From NCBI RefSeq assembly GCF_054482525.1, contig NZ_CM137006.1: a DNA stretch of 64,000 nucleotides, one strand, 5' to 3'. A program made the translations under genes and the position numbers. Below the pieces are notes generated by a model. The model was given only the letters and a program-made list of their open reading frames with translations. It made no database searches and was not told the DNA's origin. This document shows, in pieces, positions 8,292 to 19,065 of this stretch (positions are counted from its first letter, which is position 1; each line of letters opens with the position of its first letter).

Positions 8292-8755
8292 GCAGAGTCG
8301 CCGCGATTATTTATGCTCTGGTTATCTGCATCATCGTCTGCCTGTCGTGGGCGGTCAATCATTACCGTGATAACGCCATCACCTACAAAGAACAGCGTGA
8401 TAAAAAAGTCAGTGAGCTGAAGCAGCTGACCGCCACCATCGCTGACATGCAGCAGCGTCAGCGTGATGTTGCTGCGCTCGATGCAAAGTACTCGAGAGAA
8501 TTAGCCAATGCGAAAGCTGAAAATGAAACTCTGCGCGCTGATGTTGCCGCTGGTCGTAAGCGCCTGCGGGTCAATGCCAGTTGCTCCGCAGCCGTGCGTG
8601 AAGCCACCGGACCCACCAGCGTGGATAATGCAACCAGCCCCAGACTGGCAGACACCGCTGAACGGGATTATTTCACCCTCAGAGAACGGTTGATGACGAT
8701 GCAGAAGCAACTGGAAGGGGCACAGCTATACATTCGTGAGCAATGTCTCAGATAA
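8273..8755 (+). CDS. Rz: Spanin inner-membrane subunit (Rz-like)
   Basis: N-terminal TM segment, coiled-coil body, overlaps endolysin 3' end; Rz1 ORF embedded in +1 frame. Confidence 0.6.
8508..8693 (+). CDS. Rz1: Spanin outer-membrane lipoprotein (Rz1-like), embedded in Rz
   Basis: 61 aa; lipobox LVVSAC; proline-rich mature part. Confidence 0.7.
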
Positions 8756-8910
8756 AAACCGGCCAAGGATAATCCGCTAAAGATTCGCCGGTGGCGAAAG
8801 AGAGCCAAGGTGTCAACCTACGCTATTACTTATGATAATGCAACAGACGAAGCGGGACATATTGGCGCATAACAAATCAGTGCAGGCTAACTGCAGGAAG
8901 AACTTAGGGC

Positions 8911-9177
8911 GTGAACGTAGAAAACCTAAGTAACGCACATTACATCTATAACGAGATGAAAGAGCTACAGCGACAGAAAGGTATACTGGAAAGTGGTGCA
9001 GGGCTTGGTGTGACAATCCAGTCTGCCTATCAATATAGTGCTTTTCTTGAGGCCATACGCCCGCATGCAGTTGCTGAACTTAACAGCCGTATTGAGGAAA
9101 AGAAATCCGCGCTGGTTAATTTGGGTGCTTCCTTCTCTATATACGAGCATAATAAGGCGGGTTGGAAACCCGCCTAA
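8911..9177 (+). CDS. Hypothetical protein
   Basis: 88-aa ORF after Rz; ends in a bidirectional hairpin (ggcgggtt..aacccgcc, about 9152-9176). Confidence 0.35.
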   Translation: MNVENLSNAHYIYNEMKELQRQKGILESGAGLGVTIQSAYQYSAFLEAIRPHAVAELNSRIEEKKSALVNLGASFSIYEHNKAGWKPA

Positions 9178-9182
9178 AGCAC

Positions 9183-9722
9183 TTAGAAACTGCGTGGAGC
9201 TGTGGAAAGAATGGATGCCAGTTCTTCCTTCGATAAATCCCAGCTTCGATTTACAGCGTCAATTTTCTTAAACTCATCAAGCATTGCGTTATAGAGATGT
9301 TCTGTACGTGAATGAGTATTGGCAATGGGCTGTTTCTGTTCGGGGAAGCGATCAATTTTCTGATATGCCTCAATGATACTGAAGTAATCGCATTCATTAT
9401 TACCGTCGAAACCTGGGAGCTGAATTGCCCCATCATGTATTTTTAGATGATGGTCACGGACTAATTCTTTTTGCTCGTCATCACTAAGTTTCCTGAAAGC
9501 ATTGGAAAGTCCGCGATACATATTCAAGACAGCAGTAACAAAATCACGATCTTCTTTACTTGGTTCATCAACATCCAAATGTGAATATTCGGCCTTCATA
9601 ACCCAACCATTACCAGATGACACAGCATATTTAACAAGCTGTGGATCAATATCAGTTTCGATACCTAGGTGGATGGCAATGTCACATAACAAAATGGTAT
9701 TGATTTTATCTTTAATATCCAT
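9183..9722 (-). CDS. YfbU-family (UPF0304-like) protein, antisense to phage late genes
   Basis: 179 aa; by-eye alignment to E. coli YfbU as recalled (..NMY..L, GFD, THS, LSKEELASI); only credible minus-strand gene in the prophage part. Confidence 0.5.
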   Translation of the reverse strand: MDIKDKINTILLCDIAIHLGIETDIDPQLVKYAVSSGNGWVMKAEYSHLDVDEPSKEDRDFVTAVLNMYRGLSNAFRKLSDDEQKELVRDHHLKIHDGAIQLPGFDGNNECDYFSIIEAYQKIDRFPEQKQPIANTHSRTEHLYNAMLDEFKKIDAVNRSWDLSKEELASILSTAPRSF

Positions 9723-9860
9723 GAGTTAACCCTCTGAAGTAAAAAGTAATATCTACACCCGTTAGCTCATGAAGTCTATTGATCTGGCTCATATCAGCGG
9801 CAAATCTATTTCATGGAGATACTCAATGCAGGTCACTTTTGATTTATATAAGGGCGAAAC

Positions 9861-10211
9861 ATGCCAGCACTAATCCCACGAGCCTGCCGTAAACGTGGAT
9901 GTGCAGGTACAACCACAGACAGTTCTGGTTACTGCGATAAACATCGTGGCGAAGGATGGGTACAGCATCAGCGCGGACTGAGTCGCCACCAGCGTGGCTA
10001 TGGCTCGAAATGGGATGCCATACGTGCGCGCATACTGAAGCGTGATAATGATCTGTGTCAGAACTGCCTGCGCAATGGGAGAGCCGTTGAAGCCAGAACT
10101 GTGGACCACATCATTCCGAAAGCTCATGGTGGCTCGGATGCAGACAGTAACCTGCAGAGTCTGTGCTGGCCCTGCCATAAAGCAAAAACAGCGCGCGAAC
10201 GCATCAATTGA
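9861..10211 (+). CDS. HNH endonuclease (packaging-associated)
   Basis: 116 aa; CxxC...DHIIPKAHGGSDADSNLQSLCWPCHKAK; immediately upstream of terminase small subunit. Confidence 0.75.
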   Translation: MPALIPRACRKRGCAGTTTDSSGYCDKHRGEGWVQHQRGLSRHQRGYGSKWDAIRARILKRDNDLCQNCLRNGRAVEARTVDHIIPKAHGGSDADSNLQSLCWPCHKAKTARERIN

Positions 10212-10360: not shown

Positions 10361-10843
10361 ATGTCAGGACCTCCGAAAACCCCGCCACGCCTGCATTTGA
10401 TTCGAGGTAACCCCTCAAAGCGCCCCGTTAAAGACCACAAAAAAACCGCTAAAAAGGATGAAAAAGGTCTTCCTAAAATTCCGCAGCATTTAGGGGCTCA
10501 GGGGAAGTACTGGTTCAGGCGAATGGCGGAAGAGCTGAATGCGGAAGGGATCATTTCTCAGCTTGATGCGCGTGCGCTCGAGCTGCTGGTGGAAGCCTAC
10601 ACCGAATATCGGCATCACTGCGAAACACTCGATGTTGAGGGGTATACCTACCGCACGGAAACGCAGAGCGGTGATGTACTGATTAAGGCGCACCCCGCGG
10701 CGGCAATGAAAGCGGATGCCTGGAAGCGGATCCGGGCAATGCTTGCAGAGTTTGGTATGTCACCGGCAAGCCGGGCTAAAGTAAATATCGCCGGACCGGA
10801 TGATGTTGATCCGCTGGCGGAGCTTTTAAAAGCGAGAGACTGA
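10361..10843 (+). CDS. Terminase small subunit (P27-type)
   Basis: 160 aa basic N-terminus; stop overlaps start of large terminase. Confidence 0.7.
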   Translation: MSGPPKTPPRLHLIRGNPSKRPVKDHKKTAKKDEKGLPKIPQHLGAQGKYWFRRMAEELNAEGIISQLDARALELLVEAYTEYRHHCETLDVEGYTYRTETQSGDVLIKAHPAAAMKADAWKRIRAMLAEFGMSPASRAKVNIAGPDDVDPLAELLKARD

Positions 10844-12600
10844 TGGCAAAAGTGGCTGACGGGATCCGCTACGCCGAACGTGTTGTTGCAGGAGAAATTG
10901 TTGCTGGCGAATTTGTCCGCCTGGCCTGCCAGCGTTTTCTTGATGATCTGAAGTACGGCGAAGAGCGGGGGATTTATTTCAGTGAACCCCGTGCGCAGCA
11001 CATCCTGAATTTCTACAAATTTGTGCCTCATGTAAAAGGGGCGCTGGCAGGCCAGCCCATTGAGTTGATGGACTGGCATGTATTTATCCTCATTAATATT
11101 TTTGGTTTTGTCATTCCGCTGGTCAATGAAGAGACCGGGGAAGTTGTCATGCGCAGCGATGGCAGCGGACGTCCGGTGATGGTGCGCCGGTTCCGGACGG
11201 CGTACAACGAAGTCGCCCGTAAAAACGCAAAATCAACTCTGTCATCGGGTATCGGCCTGTATATGACGGGGGCAGATGGTGAAGGCGGAGCTGAGGTGTA
11301 TTCAGCCGCAACCACGCGTGACCAGGCCAGAATCGTGTTTGAAGACGCCAAAAATATGGTCAGAAAAGCCCGGTCGACACTCGGGCGGTTGTTTGATTTC
11401 AACAAGCTGGCGATTTACCAGGAGCAGAGCGCATCAAAATTTGAACCGCTTTCTTCGGATGCAAACAACCTAGATGGTCTGAACATCCACTGCGCCATTA
11501 TTGATGAGCTGCATGCACATAAAACCCGTGACGTGTGGGACGTTCTGGAAACGGCAACCGGTGCCCGTCTGCAGTCCCTTTTATTTGGTATCACCACGGC
11601 AGGGTTTAACAAGGAAGGGATTTGTTACGAGCAGCGTGATTACGCCATCAAGGTATTGCGTGGCTATAACAGCGACGTGGAGGGCGCGGTAAAAGACGAC
11701 TCCTACTTTGCGATTATTTACACCCTCGATGAGGGAGATGATCCGTTTGATGAAACGGTCTGGCAGAAAGCGAATCCCGGCCTGGGCATCTGTAAACGCT
11801 GGGATGATCTGCGTCGCCTGGCGAAAAAAGCGAAAGAACAGGTCTCTGCGCGGGTGAATTTTTTTACCAAACACATGAATGTGTGGGTAACAGCAGAGTC
11901 TGCCTGGATGGACATGATTAAGTGGGAGAAGTGCGAATACATTGCCCCACGACATGAGCTGAAAACGTATCCCATGTGGGTCGGCGTTGACCTTGCTCAT
12001 AAGATTGATATCTGTGCGGCGGCAAAACTCTGGCGAACGGATAACGGGCATGTTCATGCCGATTTTAAATTCTGGCTTCCGGAAGGACGGCTGGAACGAT
12101 GCTCGCGGCAGCAGGCAGAACTTTACCGGAAGTGGGCGGAGATGGATAAGCTGATTCTGACGGATGGTGATGTTATCGATCATGCTCAGATAAAAAGTGA
12201 CTTACTGGAATGGATTGGTGGTGAAAACCTCAGGGAACTGGGATTTGACCCGTGGAGCGCGATGCAGTTCAGCCTGGCACTGGCTGAAGAAGGGATACCG
12301 CTGGTGGAGGTTCCGCAGACGGTTCGCAATCTGTCAGAGGCCATGAAGGAAACGGAATCACTGGTCTATGCCGGGCGTTTCCATCACAGCAATCATCCGG
12401 TCATGAACTGGATGATGTCTAACGTTACGGTAAAACCGGACAAAAACGACAATATCTTCCCGAATAAATCCACGCTGGAAGCCAAAATCGACGGCCCTGT
12501 TGCGATGTTTACAGCAATGAGCCGGATGCTGGTCAATGGTGGTGAACCGGAGCTGGATCTGTCTGAACATCTGGTCAGCGTGGGCATCCGCTCGCTTTAA
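10843..12600 (+). CDS. Terminase large subunit
   Basis: 585 aa; ATPase Walker-like region and nuclease C-terminal half; position before portal. Confidence 0.85.
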
Positions 12601-12611
12601 CCGAGGTCATT

Positions 12612-12794
12612 ATGTTTCTGATAATTCTCGCGCCACTGGTGGGCGTGCTGGGTGCGCTTTTGCTGGCGTATGGTGCCTGGCTGATTTATCCCCCGGCGGG
12701 TTTTGTTGTTGCCGGGGTGCTGTGCCTGTTCTGGTCGTGGCTGGTGGCGCGATATCTCGACCGTACACAGCCGTCTGTCGGCGGAGGTAAATAG
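12612..12794 (+). CDS. Small membrane protein (2 predicted TM helices)
   Basis: 60-aa hydrophobic ORF between terminase and portal; stop overlaps portal start. Confidence 0.3.
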
Positions 12795-14035
12795 TGTTCT
12801 TTTCGGGATTATTTCAACGAAAAAGTGACGCACCGGTGACCACGCCAGCAGAGCTGGCGGATGCCATCGGGTTGTCTTACGACACCTATACCGGAAAGCA
12901 GATCAGCAGTCAGCGGGCCATGCGACTGACGGCGGTTTTTTCCTGCGTCAGAGTGCTGGCAGAGTCGGTCGGGATGTTGCCCTGCAATCTGTATCACCTG
13001 AACGGCAGCCTGAAACAGAGGGCCACCGGCGAACGTCTGCATAAGCTGATCTCCACGCATCCCAATGGCTATATGACGCCGCAGGAGTTCTGGGAGCTGG
13101 TGGTCACCTGTCTGTGCCTGAGGGGAAACTTTTACGCCTACAAAGTGAAAGCATTTGGCGAAGTGGCTGAACTGCTGCCCGTCGATCCCGGTTGTGTGGT
13201 ACCGAAGCTTAACAGTCGCTGGGAGCCGGTCTATCAGGTCACATTCCCGGACGGTTCCACGGATGTACTGAGCCAGGAAGATATCTGGCATGTGCGCACG
13301 CTGACGCTGGACGGTCTGGTGGGACTGAATCCCATCGCCTATGCCCGCGAGGCAATATCGCTGGCAGCAGCGACCGAAGAGCACGGGGCCAGACTGTTCA
13401 GCAATGGTGCGGTGACGTCCGGTGTGTTGCGTACAGAACAGACGCTGTCGGATCAGGCTTATGAGCGCCTGAAGAAAGATTTTGAGGAGCGTCACACCGG
13501 GCTTGGCAATGCTCACCGCCCGATGATCCTTGAGATGGGGCTGGACTGGAAGTCGATGGCGCTGAACGCCGAGGACAGCCAGTTCCTGGAAACCCGCAAG
13601 TTTCAGCTTGAAGAAATCTGTCGTCTGTTCCGGGTGCCGTTGCACATGGTGCAGAACACCGATCGCGCCACCTTCAACAATATCGAAGAGCTGGGGCTGG
13701 GATTTATCAACTATTCACTGGTGCCGTATCTGACCCGCATCGAACAGCGGATCAACACCGGACTGGTACGAAAAAGTAAGCAGGGCGTTTATTACGCCAA
13801 ATTTAACGCCGGGGCGTTACTGCGCGGGGATATGAAGTCCCGTTTTGAAGCCTACGCCACCGGGATCAACTGGGGAATTTACTCTCCCAATGACTGCCGC
13901 GACCTGGAAGATATGAATCCGCGTCCCGGTGGTGATGTCTATCTCACACCGATGAACATGACCACAAAACCCTCCGATGGCAGTAAAGCCGGTAAGCAGA
14001 AGGATAACGCCAATGCAGACGAAACAACGTCTTGA
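12794..14035 (+). CDS. Portal protein (HK97-type)
   Basis: 413 aa; gene order and HK97-portal-like sequence. Confidence 0.8.
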   Translation: MFFSGLFQRKSDAPVTTPAELADAIGLSYDTYTGKQISSQRAMRLTAVFSCVRVLAESVGMLPCNLYHLNGSLKQRATGERLHKLISTHPNGYMTPQEFWELVVTCLCLRGNFYAYKVKAFGEVAELLPVDPGCVVPKLNSRWEPVYQVTFPDGSTDVLSQEDIWHVRTLTLDGLVGLNPIAYAREAISLAAATEEHGARLFSNGAVTSGVLRTEQTLSDQAYERLKKDFEERHTGLGNAHRPMILEMGLDWKSMALNAEDSQFLETRKFQLEEICRLFRVPLHMVQNTDRATFNNIEELGLGFINYSLVPYLTRIEQRINTGLVRKSKQGVYYAKFNAGALLRGDMKSRFEAYATGINWGIYSPNDCRDLEDMNPRPGGDVYLTPMNMTTKPSDGSKAGKQKDNANADETTS

Positions 14036-15934: not shown

Positions 15935-16123
15935 ATGATCCTGAAACAAGATCTGAAATGGTCACCGGACGGTATGCGTGTTGAGATTATTCGGGCCGGT
16001 GAGTATGAAGATAAAGAATTACCCGAACGGGTACGCGAAATTGCCACTGCAGCTGGGATTGTCTCTGATAAGAGAACACCTGTTGCGCGGGGGGCTGATA
16101 AGTCTAAAAAACAGCATTCATAG
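15935..16123 (+). CDS. Hypothetical small head-module protein
   Basis: 62-aa ORF with RBS, between capsid and connector genes. Confidence 0.3.
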   Translation: MILKQDLKWSPDGMRVEIIRAGEYEDKELPERVREIATAAGIVSDKRTPVARGADKSKKQHS

Positions 16124-18724: not shown

Positions 18725-19026
18725 AGCTTCCGGGGATGCGTTTTCTGATGATGCTGGCGCTCAGGATGGGGCGCACATTGTCAGAGTTACGCCGGGAAAT
18801 GTCCGCATCAGAAATCATGATGTGGGCAGAATTTGACAGGTTCAGCCCGCTGGGTGACGAGCGGGCTGATATCCGGGCTGCCCAGATAGTTTCTGCGGTT
18901 TACGGTGCGCAGGGTGTCAAAGTCCCACTGAATGATGCGCTTCTTCAGTGGGAACAAGAGCAGACAGAAGGCGTCTCAGATCCATTTGCCGGACTGGAAA
19001 ACGCGCTTTTAATAGTGTCTCAGTGA
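18715..19026 (+). CDS. Tail assembly chaperone extension (T-like), expressed as G-T fusion by -1 frameshift
   Basis: A AAA AAG at 18715-18721; the -1 frame is open from 18721 through ORF 18736-19026. Confidence 0.6.
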   Translation, partial: KKVELPGMRFLMMLALRMGRTLSELRREMSASEIMMWAEFDRFSPLGDERADIRAAQIVSAVYGAQGVKVPLNDALLQWEQEQTEGVSDPFAGLENALLIVSQ

Positions 19027-19065
19027 GTCAACATAACCGCTTCGGCGGTTTTTTTCGTCCGGAGA

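Follow-up and report, generated by a model that had tools for sequence, protein, structure and literature searches.

A small gene for a predicted membrane hairpin, co-inherited with the portal gene in an Escherichia coli lambdoid prophage

The portal protein of phage T4 (gp20) assembles on the inner membrane together with phage gp40 and the host protein YidC (PMC4493910; PMC9026906). This system is typified by a phage factor that links portal assembly to the cytoplasmic membrane, and the analogy that we draw with it below is offered as a hypothesis, not as a finding. PHROG and Pfam scans gave no sequence relation between gp40 and the protein described here, which also matched no head-assembly chaperone family and no PDB entry. 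T4 gene 40 is larger than our gene and is not known to lie next to gene 20.

Very small membrane proteins tied to a DNA-packaging portal are also found in phage PRD1, where P20 and P22 are small integral membrane proteins of the packaging vertex. In this respect they resemble the arrangement proposed here; PRD1, however, possesses an internal lipid membrane, which the HK97-type tailed phages do not, and no homology is expected. The class II holins and pinholins, such as S21 of phage 21, share with our protein small size, two predicted transmembrane (TM) helices, an N-in/C-in arrangement, glycine-zipper-like faces and late expression. In contrast to the holins, our gene is situated outside the lysis cassette and its product has no holin Pfam or PHROG match, while its C-terminal tail is short and weakly charged. 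With gpW of phage λ, a soluble head-completion protein, only the position between the large terminase and portal genes is held in common, our protein being a predicted hydrophobic hairpin. The λ gpW label attached by automated annotation to the corresponding gene in vB_EcoM-606R7, 720R4, 689R6 and As1 is a positional misannotation, no gpW Pfam match having been obtained at E ≤ 1; because the resemblance is one of position only, the label “head-tail joining protein W” is wrong.

The small gene and its product

The DNA analyzed here (the window) is a single stretch of 64,000 nt. The element that hosts the small gene is an apparently complete E. coli lambdoid prophage, the late operon of which encodes, in order, an HNH endonuclease, a P27-type small terminase, the large terminase (TerL), the small ORF, the portal, an HK97-type protease, the major capsid protein and a siphovirus tail. 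In a near-identical reference prophage, to which the window shows 93-99% similarity across most of this stretch, the region upstream of the HNH gene holds a complete lysis cassette that comprises a class II holin, a lysozyme and an Rz-type lysis protein. The small ORF lies on the same strand as its neighbors, 3′ of TerL and directly 5′ of the portal gene (Table 1). According to the sequence and the ORF list it runs for 60 codons from an ATG to a TAG without disruption, and a gap of 11 nt separates it from the TAA of TerL (12598-12600). It is located exactly where the initial annotation had placed a 60-aa hydrophobic ORF between terminase and portal, and a GRAVY of 1.26 bears out the hydrophobic character.

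Table 1. Features of the terminase-portal region in window coordinates
Feature	Position	Strand	Evidence
TerL gene (585 aa), upstream neighbor	10843..12600	+	Pfam TerL_ATPase E=1.9e-27, TerL_nuclease E=4e-52
Region of recombination (mosaic) breakpoints, final 20-60 nt of TerL	12539..12582	.	Match breaks in E. coli records
Shine-Dalgarno GAGGT of the small gene	12603..12607	+	4 nt before ATG, read from sequence
ymfR-family gene, 60-aa membrane protein (predicted)	12612..12794 incl. stop	+	ORF, PHROG 502, dN/dS
Helix 1, residues 2-25 (predicted); conserved P8, G11, G14, G21, W23	12615..12686	+	AlphaFold2, alignments A1/A2, hydropathy
Tight turn Y26-P-P-A-G30, predicted periplasm-facing	12687..12701	+	Alignments A1-A3, K+R counts
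Helix 2, membrane part, residues 31-46 (predicted); invariant G35, C38, W41, S42 in A1	12702..12749	+	AlphaFold2, A1
Variable basic C-terminal tail, residues 47-60, predicted cytoplasmic	12750..12791	+	dN/dS, A1, charge count
Portal Shine-Dalgarno GGAGG, inside small-ORF codons 58-59	12783..12787	+	Read from sequence
Stop/start overlap TAGTG; small-gene TAG and portal GTG (12794-12796) share base 12794	12792..12796	+	Sequence
Portal gene (413 aa), downstream neighbor	12794..14035	+	Pfam Phage_portal PF04860 E=5e-108; PHROG 12

The translational coupling to the portal gene claimed in the initial annotation is upheld, as far as can be read from the DNA, by the TAGTG overlap at 12794 and the GGAGG embedded in the small ORF. 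A purine-rich stretch equivalent to this GGAGG precedes the portal start in distant loci too, and a translational chain leading from TerL through the small protein to the portal is strongly predicted. A scan of the locus for promoters and terminators gave none above chance that would belong to the small gene, the three promoter-like matches around it comparing with 3.9 expected. The sole match on the + strand (12597-12625) could not drive the ORF because its −10 hexamer falls inside it. No Rfam element was matched at the gene.

The frame is intact in all 92 related loci for which the region is complete. The check covered 95 loci, the remaining three being two that end at a contig edge by the ORF and HK97, which does not have the gene. 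The scan of viral contigs yielded only near-identical enterobacterial loci and so informs on the integrity of the frame, not on diversity. Conservation in relatives had been suggested as a check when the ORF was first noted, and neither loss nor disruption was seen among these 92.

Across 36 distinct close nucleotide variants the dN/dS ratio is 0.41 in the frame of the ORF, the lowest of the six frames, the other five giving 0.72-1.8. Within this close set the ratio is 0.35 for codons 1-46 and 0.97 for codons 47-60; in divergent enterobacterial pairs (pS 0.5-0.77) it falls to 0.1-0.25 for codons 1-46. Three overlapping ORFs, at 12536-12790 (+), 12597-12833 (−) and 12610-12768 (−), were rejected as coding sequences, since the ratios in their frames (about 0.7-1.8) are those of non-coding DNA. 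Several complete E. coli genomes contain the 801 nt around the small ORF without a single difference, and PGAP annotates the ORF in them as a hypothetical protein; the product is 100% identical to RefSeq WP_000478567.1. An alignment of 29 enterobacterial proteins with identities down to 58% (A1) reveals 15 invariant positions: M1, L6, P8, G11, G14, L18, G21, W23, Y26, G30, G35, C38, L39, W41 and S42. In a wider alignment of 59 sequences, with identities down to 24% (A2), G11, G14, G21 and G35 are still invariant or nearly so. Because the frame is kept, purifying selection acts on it and residues are invariant across bacterial classes, the ORF is not spurious; it is a late phage gene that codes for a conserved protein. 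Of the two options originally left open, a real cargo gene or a spurious ORF, the latter is thus dismissed by the evidence of selection.

The protein has two hydrophobic stretches, split by IYPPAG, and AlphaFold2, supplied with the alignment of 59 sequences, predicts helices at residues 2-25 and 27-52 with a mean pLDDT of 78.5. The model is congruent with the two-helix membrane protein of the initial annotation. Within the family, conservation is highest in the motif YGAWxIYxPAG[FY], at residues 20-31 of our protein. Among 231 family proteins the mean number of Lys and Arg residues is 0.92 in the N-terminal tail and 2.57 in the C-terminal tail, compared with 0.08 in the loop of six residues, a distribution which by the positive-inside rule argues for an N-in/C-in topology with the conserved turn facing outward. 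The sequence thus strongly predicts a hairpin in the membrane whose two ends lie in the cytoplasm. The C-terminal tail is variable, with the exception of its final GG[K/E/D], which is conserved because the embedded ribosome-binding site of the portal gene dictates the codons.

Both helices carry stripes of small residues (G11/G14-A15/G21-A22 and G30/A34-G35/C38/S42). Natural tandem duplications (P0158, P0176, P0192 and P0212) place two hairpins in one chain, from which we surmise that hairpins pack against each other. No fusion to either the portal protein or TerL was found among the best 150 of 418 representative family members.

Family, earlier annotation and distribution

The protein matches PHROG 502, annotated as “membrane protein,” with an E-value of 1.6e-27, residues 1-55 aligning with positions 3-57 of the 58 in the profile. 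The only other families returned by the PHROG scan were 7105, which is related and is discussed below, and 33409 and 12448, which are noise. PHROG 502 is placed in the category “moron, auxiliary metabolic gene and host takeover.” Among the homologues are L37 of phage phiP27 (“putative integral membrane protein”), Sb3 of ST64B and YmfR of E. coli K-12, and others, unnamed or described as “membrane protein,” occur in SfI, SfII, SfIV, PY54, Klebsiella phages and Azospirillum phage Cd. Many E. coli genomes carry the annotation ymfR for this gene. Our gene shares family and position with YmfR, L37, Sb3 and PHROG 502, without material difference; it is a member of the already annotated YmfR family and not new. 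The gene is in this sense an ordinary one, and the window adds no new gene to those described. The earlier remark that a membrane protein is unexpected inside the packaging module was accordingly overstated, since this one had been annotated in phiP27, ST64B, K-12 and PHROG 502.

Searches of Pfam, NCBIfam and PDB sequences produced no meaningful match and no solved relative; with PADLOC included, they revealed no similarity to any characterized protein. PADLOC itself gave no anti-phage defense family for our protein and noise only for three relatives.

The K-12 protein (b1150), encoded by the cryptic prophage e14, is likewise 60 aa in length, differs from ours at 5 of 60 residues and scores 94.6 bits against the family profile. 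In e14, ymfR is flanked by the remnant of a terminase gene and by a truncated portal gene, and thus has the position of our gene; e14, however, is a deleted remnant, whereas the prophage that carries our gene is lambdoid, has a siphovirus-type tail and appears to be complete. No functional study of the family was found in the literature mentioning ymfR, the homologue phages, the accessions or the PHROG identifier. The K-12 gene has served as a neutral integration site, its deletion having no phenotype (PMC9145139), but e14 is a defective prophage. Under an SOS-inducing compound its mRNA rises, with a log2 fold change of 4.52, alongside those of the remaining e14 genes (PMC10012262). In other work ymfR is listed among the deletions of one study and appears in a first-round overexpression screen in another.

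A profile built from the enterobacterial alignment and run against 1.84 billion representative proteins recovered 418 representatives at E ≤ 1e-3. Nearly all of the best 150 of these are 50-70 aa in length. Common to the family proteins are the turn motif, which ends in [FY]I..G, and a basic residue that follows helix 2; members occur in the alpha-, beta- and gamma-proteobacteria as well as in several metagenome-assembled genomes (MAGs). When one genome per species was scanned with a narrower alignment (A3), 36 loci emerged, the hosts including Enterobacterales, Neptuniibacter, Massilia, Nitrosomonas, Acidovorax, Reyranella, Bradyrhizobium, Rhizobium, Sulfitobacter and Rhodopila. Others of the 36 fell in MAGs assigned to Ruminococcaceae, Oscillospiraceae, Phycisphaerales and Dehalococcoidia, assignments to be read with caution because one “Bacillota” contig (L095) carries an E. 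coli-like copy.

Of 135 family loci, 127 could be evaluated for an adjacent portal gene, and in 124 of them jackhmmer identified a portal homologue that begins at the stop codon of the small gene; Pfam adds a portal for two of the three exceptions, bringing the total to 126 of 127. One of the two (L089) has a PF04860 portal, and the other (L128) a portal of the λ family (PF05136) together with a gpA-type terminase, the overlap (ATGA) being kept. The third exception (L121) is the only locus in which another gene, an ORF of 109 aa, separates the small gene from the portal. Inserted genes in four other loci (L109, L111, L119 and L120) fall between TerL and the small gene. In all seven distant representatives that were inspected, TerL, the small gene and a PF04860 portal follow in this order with overlaps at both ends, in contexts which include S78 or S49 proteases and, in one case, a Tara Oceans contig. 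Of 21 distinct loci, 16 show a 1-nt overlap between stop codon and portal start (TAATG, TGATG or TAGTG) and two others an ATGA overlap. The family occurs with siphovirus tails, as in our prophage, and in records named as myoviruses (vB_EcoM-...). The small gene is, in other words, independent of the type of tail and of the type of protease (S78 or S49).

We also considered whether the gene is a moron or cargo gene, and rejected this. It shows no promoter or terminator of its own, the K-12 copy is co-induced with the e14 genes, and it is not variably present in close relatives but fixed in position across bacterial classes. The cargo half of the initial proposal therefore fails on the fixed, portal-adjacent position seen in about 135 loci, while its other half, that the gene is real, is retained.

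Inheritance with the portal

A query of 2.2 kb comprising TerL, the small gene and the portal gene was compared with 5,426 complete E. coli genomes and gave 1,961 matching records, of which 60, evenly spread, are listed. In 25 of the listed matches, similarity begins at query position 982-983 (window 12581-12582) and extends through ymfR and the portal gene; in 16 others it covers TerL alone, ending at 940-943 (window 12539-12542). No breakpoint between ymfR and the portal gene was seen in the 60 listed of the 1,961 records. Since the junctions sit in the 3′-end of TerL, the small gene travels with the portal, and the inherited block consists of the C-terminal tail of TerL, the hairpin and the portal. 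The C-terminus of the λ terminase is the element that specifies binding to the portal. If it plays a like role here, TerL tail, hairpin and portal would form a co-adapted unit; the HK97 motor paper was found to hold no statement on the terminase C-terminal tail or on portal binding that could be used on this point.

E. coli 14EC020 provides an example of such an exchange. Its TerL is 98.9% identical to ours over residues 1-567, similarity being lost from about 12541 onward. What follows is a different hairpin gene, of 53 aa, and then a portal gene whose product is only 29% identical to the window portal. This hairpin belongs to PHROG 7105, members of which (53-54 aa) are also encoded by vB_EcoS-813R8 and Ralstonia phage YO102_2. 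Like our protein they are hydrophobic two-helix hairpins encoded between TerL and portal, the gene overlapping both; unlike it they have no W..IY.PAG turn, possessing GVYLYAGLPASL or GVHLQFGPGPAL instead. They cross-match both PHROG 502, with E about 1e-6, and, at about 1e-10 to 1e-11, the profile of the family. The joint replacement of hairpin and portal in 14EC020 indicates that each portal type has its own hairpin. These records make it evident that the small gene is co-inherited with the portal gene; in view of this and of its fidelity of position, the assignment to the “moron” category in the database is doubtful.

A hairpin ORF was looked for in about 18 records of phages that have related portals. 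It is present in about eight of these: vB_EcoM-606R7, vB_YenS-P840 (ORF03), Azospirillum phage Cd, Vibrio K265, vB_EcoS-813R8 and Ralstonia YO102_2, probably YeP1 and, weakly, Vibrio Her. Ten inspected records have none (HK97, NatCom_3357, a Lachnospiraceae phage, Javan255, Providencia PSTRCR_117lys, Mcat13, phi3626, KpF5, z1a and BR178a), and it was found in none of the sampled phages of Gram-positive hosts. The absences are confined to the more distant portal lineages, the close relatives all carrying an intact gene. In HK97, TerL overlaps the portal gene directly, by the same single base and with no ORF between. As HK97 and nine other sampled phages do without it, the small protein cannot be a general requirement of portals. 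A motif at the N-terminus of the portal protein (MFF.GLF.K / MG[IL][LF]..LF) was considered as a docking site and dropped, being present in NatCom_3357, the Lachnospiraceae phage and Javan255, none of which has the gene.

A possible role with the portal, and its alternatives

Our leading suggestion, to which we give a probability of roughly 0.3, is that a YmfR-family protein and its cognate portal cooperate at the inner membrane, with an outcome resembling that of T4 gp40. The protein would be made late, within the translational chain from TerL to portal, and would insert into the cytoplasmic membrane as a helical hairpin with the W-x-I-Y-x-P-A-G turn at the outer face. The stripes of small residues could allow hairpins to pack into dimers or higher oligomers, and these may provide a site of attachment or nucleation on the membrane for the portal ring as it forms, or for the complex that initiates the procapsid. 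The conserved membrane core would then perform a generic membrane task, with the tail, short, variable and basic, turned toward the portal. Presumably YmfR would improve assembly in the lineages that carry it, without portals of the same type being universally dependent on it. This reading draws on the adjacency of the two genes, the rarity of insertions that split the pair, the positions of the junctions and the hairpins specific to portal types. Several observations count against it: HK97 and nine other sampled phages with related portals lack the gene; its deletion from K-12 has no phenotype, albeit in a defective prophage; no fusion to portal or TerL was found among the best 150 representatives, and no similarity to any characterized protein; the best-conserved parts of the protein are the membrane core and the outward turn rather than the cytoplasmic tail; and this tail, which would have to make the contact with the portal, has few residues and a nearly neutral rate of evolution (dN/dS 0.97). 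In the literature on actinophages and SPP1, we found no relevant parallel among the genes between terminase and portal.

Coupling is general in this operon, as the TerL/portal overlap of HK97 indicates, so that coupling and adjacency may reflect only the upkeep of portal translation, and adjacency alone would also lead to co-inheritance with the portal. Alternatively, the protein may act in the membrane independently of the portal, as a small oligomeric pore or by binding a conserved host inner-membrane protein, and so tune the timing of lysis, dissipate the membrane potential or exclude superinfecting DNA, either late in the infection cycle or during lysogeny; its position would be a historical accident, kept for the sake of the portal's translation start signals. 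We regard this as the main alternative, somewhat less likely than the role with the portal. It agrees with the category to which PHROG 502 has been assigned (moron / host takeover), with the location of the most conserved surfaces in the membrane or outward and not toward the cytoplasm, and with the patchy presence of the gene among phages with related portals; the small-residue stripes and tandem duplications, moreover, suggest oligomers such as those of pore-forming peptides. Membrane proteins within structural operons also have precedent, gp15 of HK97, a superinfection exclusion protein, being one. Against it stands the expression of the gene, which has no promoter or terminator signal of its own and in K-12 is induced with the lytic genes and not constitutively (PMC10012262). 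Its motif and position are conserved across bacterial classes and tail types, unlike the fast-evolving exclusion genes that are specific for receptors or tails, and the gene co-varies with the type of portal. Our prophage and related loci already have a complete lysis cassette, holin included, and the protein has no match in PADLOC or among the holin families of Pfam and PHROG.

Two further explanations appear weaker. Several phages have pilot proteins that insert into membranes, and a virion-borne YmfR, bound to the portal or held in the head, might be released at infection and enter the inner membrane of the new host for DNA entry. Small size and hydrophobicity, as in pilot proteins, and a linkage to the portal that is independent of tail type would suit such a role; but a protein with a GRAVY of 1.26 and no soluble domain would be hard to keep in a soluble capsid, no virion proteome reporting the family was found in the literature, and related phages such as HK97 manage without the gene. 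We consider a virion protein very unlikely. Less credible still is a mere translational relay from TerL to portal, in which the ORF carries the portal Shine-Dalgarno sequence and its peptide is an inert by-product, or in which the ORF is spurious. The ribosome-binding site and start of the portal gene do lie within or overlap the ORF, the C-terminal GGx is set by that site and the tail evolves neutrally. A relay, however, would do with any peptide, whereas purifying selection acts on codons 1-46 (dN/dS 0.1-0.35) and the motif persists in proteins of different bacterial classes whose overall identity is 24-40%; HK97, furthermore, couples TerL to the portal with no ORF of this kind. The rest of the probability falls to functions other than those considered here.

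The hairpins of PHROG 502 and PHROG 7105 might, more broadly, constitute an unrecognized and widespread class of portal co-factors, small proteins of the inner membrane that are each inherited along with the cognate portal and the TerL C-terminal tail. At the cytoplasmic membrane they would tether or nucleate the packaging motor, or portal rings and procapsids in the course of assembly. This extension is speculative, and we would not favor it over its negation. If it were true, ordinary temperate phages would join the T4-like and jumbo phages, for which head assembly initiated at the membrane has so far been documented, and the class of co-factors would span a large clade of HK97-type and some λ-type phages. 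Should the role prove to be independent of the portal, the interest of the family would be modest. The strict linkage to the portal is in any event a lead on whether head assembly or packaging in temperate phages of the HK97 type involves the inner membrane. Few small genes of the packaging module keep their position as faithfully as the one for this 60-aa protein, which is found directly in front of portals from the enterobacteria to the rhizobia, in marine contigs and in rumen MAGs.

Mosaicism at the junction of the terminase and portal genes

The 60-aa membrane hairpin gene lies between the genes for the large terminase subunit (TerL) and the portal protein. The final 20-60 nt of the TerL gene contain an abrupt mosaic junction (window 12539-12582; L138 3940-4160), as is evident from the corresponding locus of E. 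coli 14EC020 (L138). The 14EC020 TerL is 98.9% identical to that of the window as far as residue 567, after which its tail is unrelated. Beyond this tail are found a different hairpin of 53 aa and then a portal protein which is only 29% identical. The association of a nearly identical TerL with a different tail, hairpin and portal suggests that the "TerL tail + hairpin + portal" is a swappable cassette. A further example of this junction as an insertion hot spot is Streptococcus phage Javan255 (L134 1-2030), where inserted genes between TerL and portal, including one resembling a toxin-antitoxin gene, split the large terminase annotation.

The start of the small ORF also carries a promoter-like match, which is not above the chance expectation for this region, and the -10 hexamer of which falls within the small ORF itself. 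Its position is listed below together with those of the other features discussed in the following sections.

Features of the window and of locus L128, the latter from a Phycisphaerales MAG contig
Feature	Position	Strand	Remarks
179-aa ORF	window 9183-9722	minus	YfbU domain (Pfam E=1.4e-12)
Weak sigma-70-like match	window 12597-12625	+	TTAACC / 17 nt / GATAAT, 9 of 12; spans TerL stop and small ORF start
62-aa ORF	window 15935-16123	+	between major capsid gene and head-tail connector gene
Hairpin family member	L128 3384-3647 (JAKSDK010001243.1)		directly before lambda-family portal (PF05136)

Unusual members of the hairpin family and their database records

Among the loci compared, L128 is the only case seen in which the hairpin accompanies a portal other than the HK97-type. 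The two genes are joined by an ATGA overlap. The module possesses a gpA-type terminase, and its gpW position, ahead of the hairpin gene, is occupied by an ORF of 90 aa. The L128 hairpin has an N-terminal extension of approximately 45 aa, predicted to be cytoplasmic. Natural tandem duplications of the hairpin are found in four of the representative proteins from the profile search (P0158, P0176, P0192 and P0212), each chain of 102-122 aa containing two YGAW..PAG units.

Homologues of the hairpin in the phage records ON470580, ON470603, ON470584 and PQ793804 are labeled "head-tail joining protein W," apparently by positional transfer from lambda; the small membrane protein shows no similarity to gpW. 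Copies approximately 92% identical to the E. coli hairpin gene occur in a 1764-nt record assigned to "Enterococcus phage Efm 3-10" (OR844959.1) and in a 5.6-kb MAG contig assigned to a "Bacillota bacterium" (L095). Both are most likely the result of contamination or mis-binning rather than indications of Gram-positive hosts for this gene.

Other variation in and around the head module

The related SC516 prophage (L001) is 93-99% similar to the window elsewhere, yet a region of about 1.1 kb (window 8725-9861) between the lysis genes and HNH, which contains the YfbU-domain ORF, does not align to it. In contrast to the small ORF between TerL and portal, this region looks like a genuine moron-type insertion. 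Where the SC516 prophage has approximately 450 nt (L001 26690-27137), the window has a stretch of 46 nt (18989-19035). Absent from the window is the zinc-ribbon-domain gene found in SC516 between the gene for tail assembly protein T and that for the tape measure.

The 62-aa ORF of the head module specifies a hydrophilic product, which is named a hypothetical protein by PGAP in the related prophage and gave no match in a Pfam search. Small ORFs (69-74 aa) are found at the matching position in two distant loci (L084 and L088). Many portal proteins of this subfamily (e.g., window 12794-12830; L131, L132 and L134) begin with a short hydrophobic/aromatic motif, with variants such as MFFSGLFQRK, MGILSGLF and MGLFSRLRG, and this is true with or without the hairpin gene.
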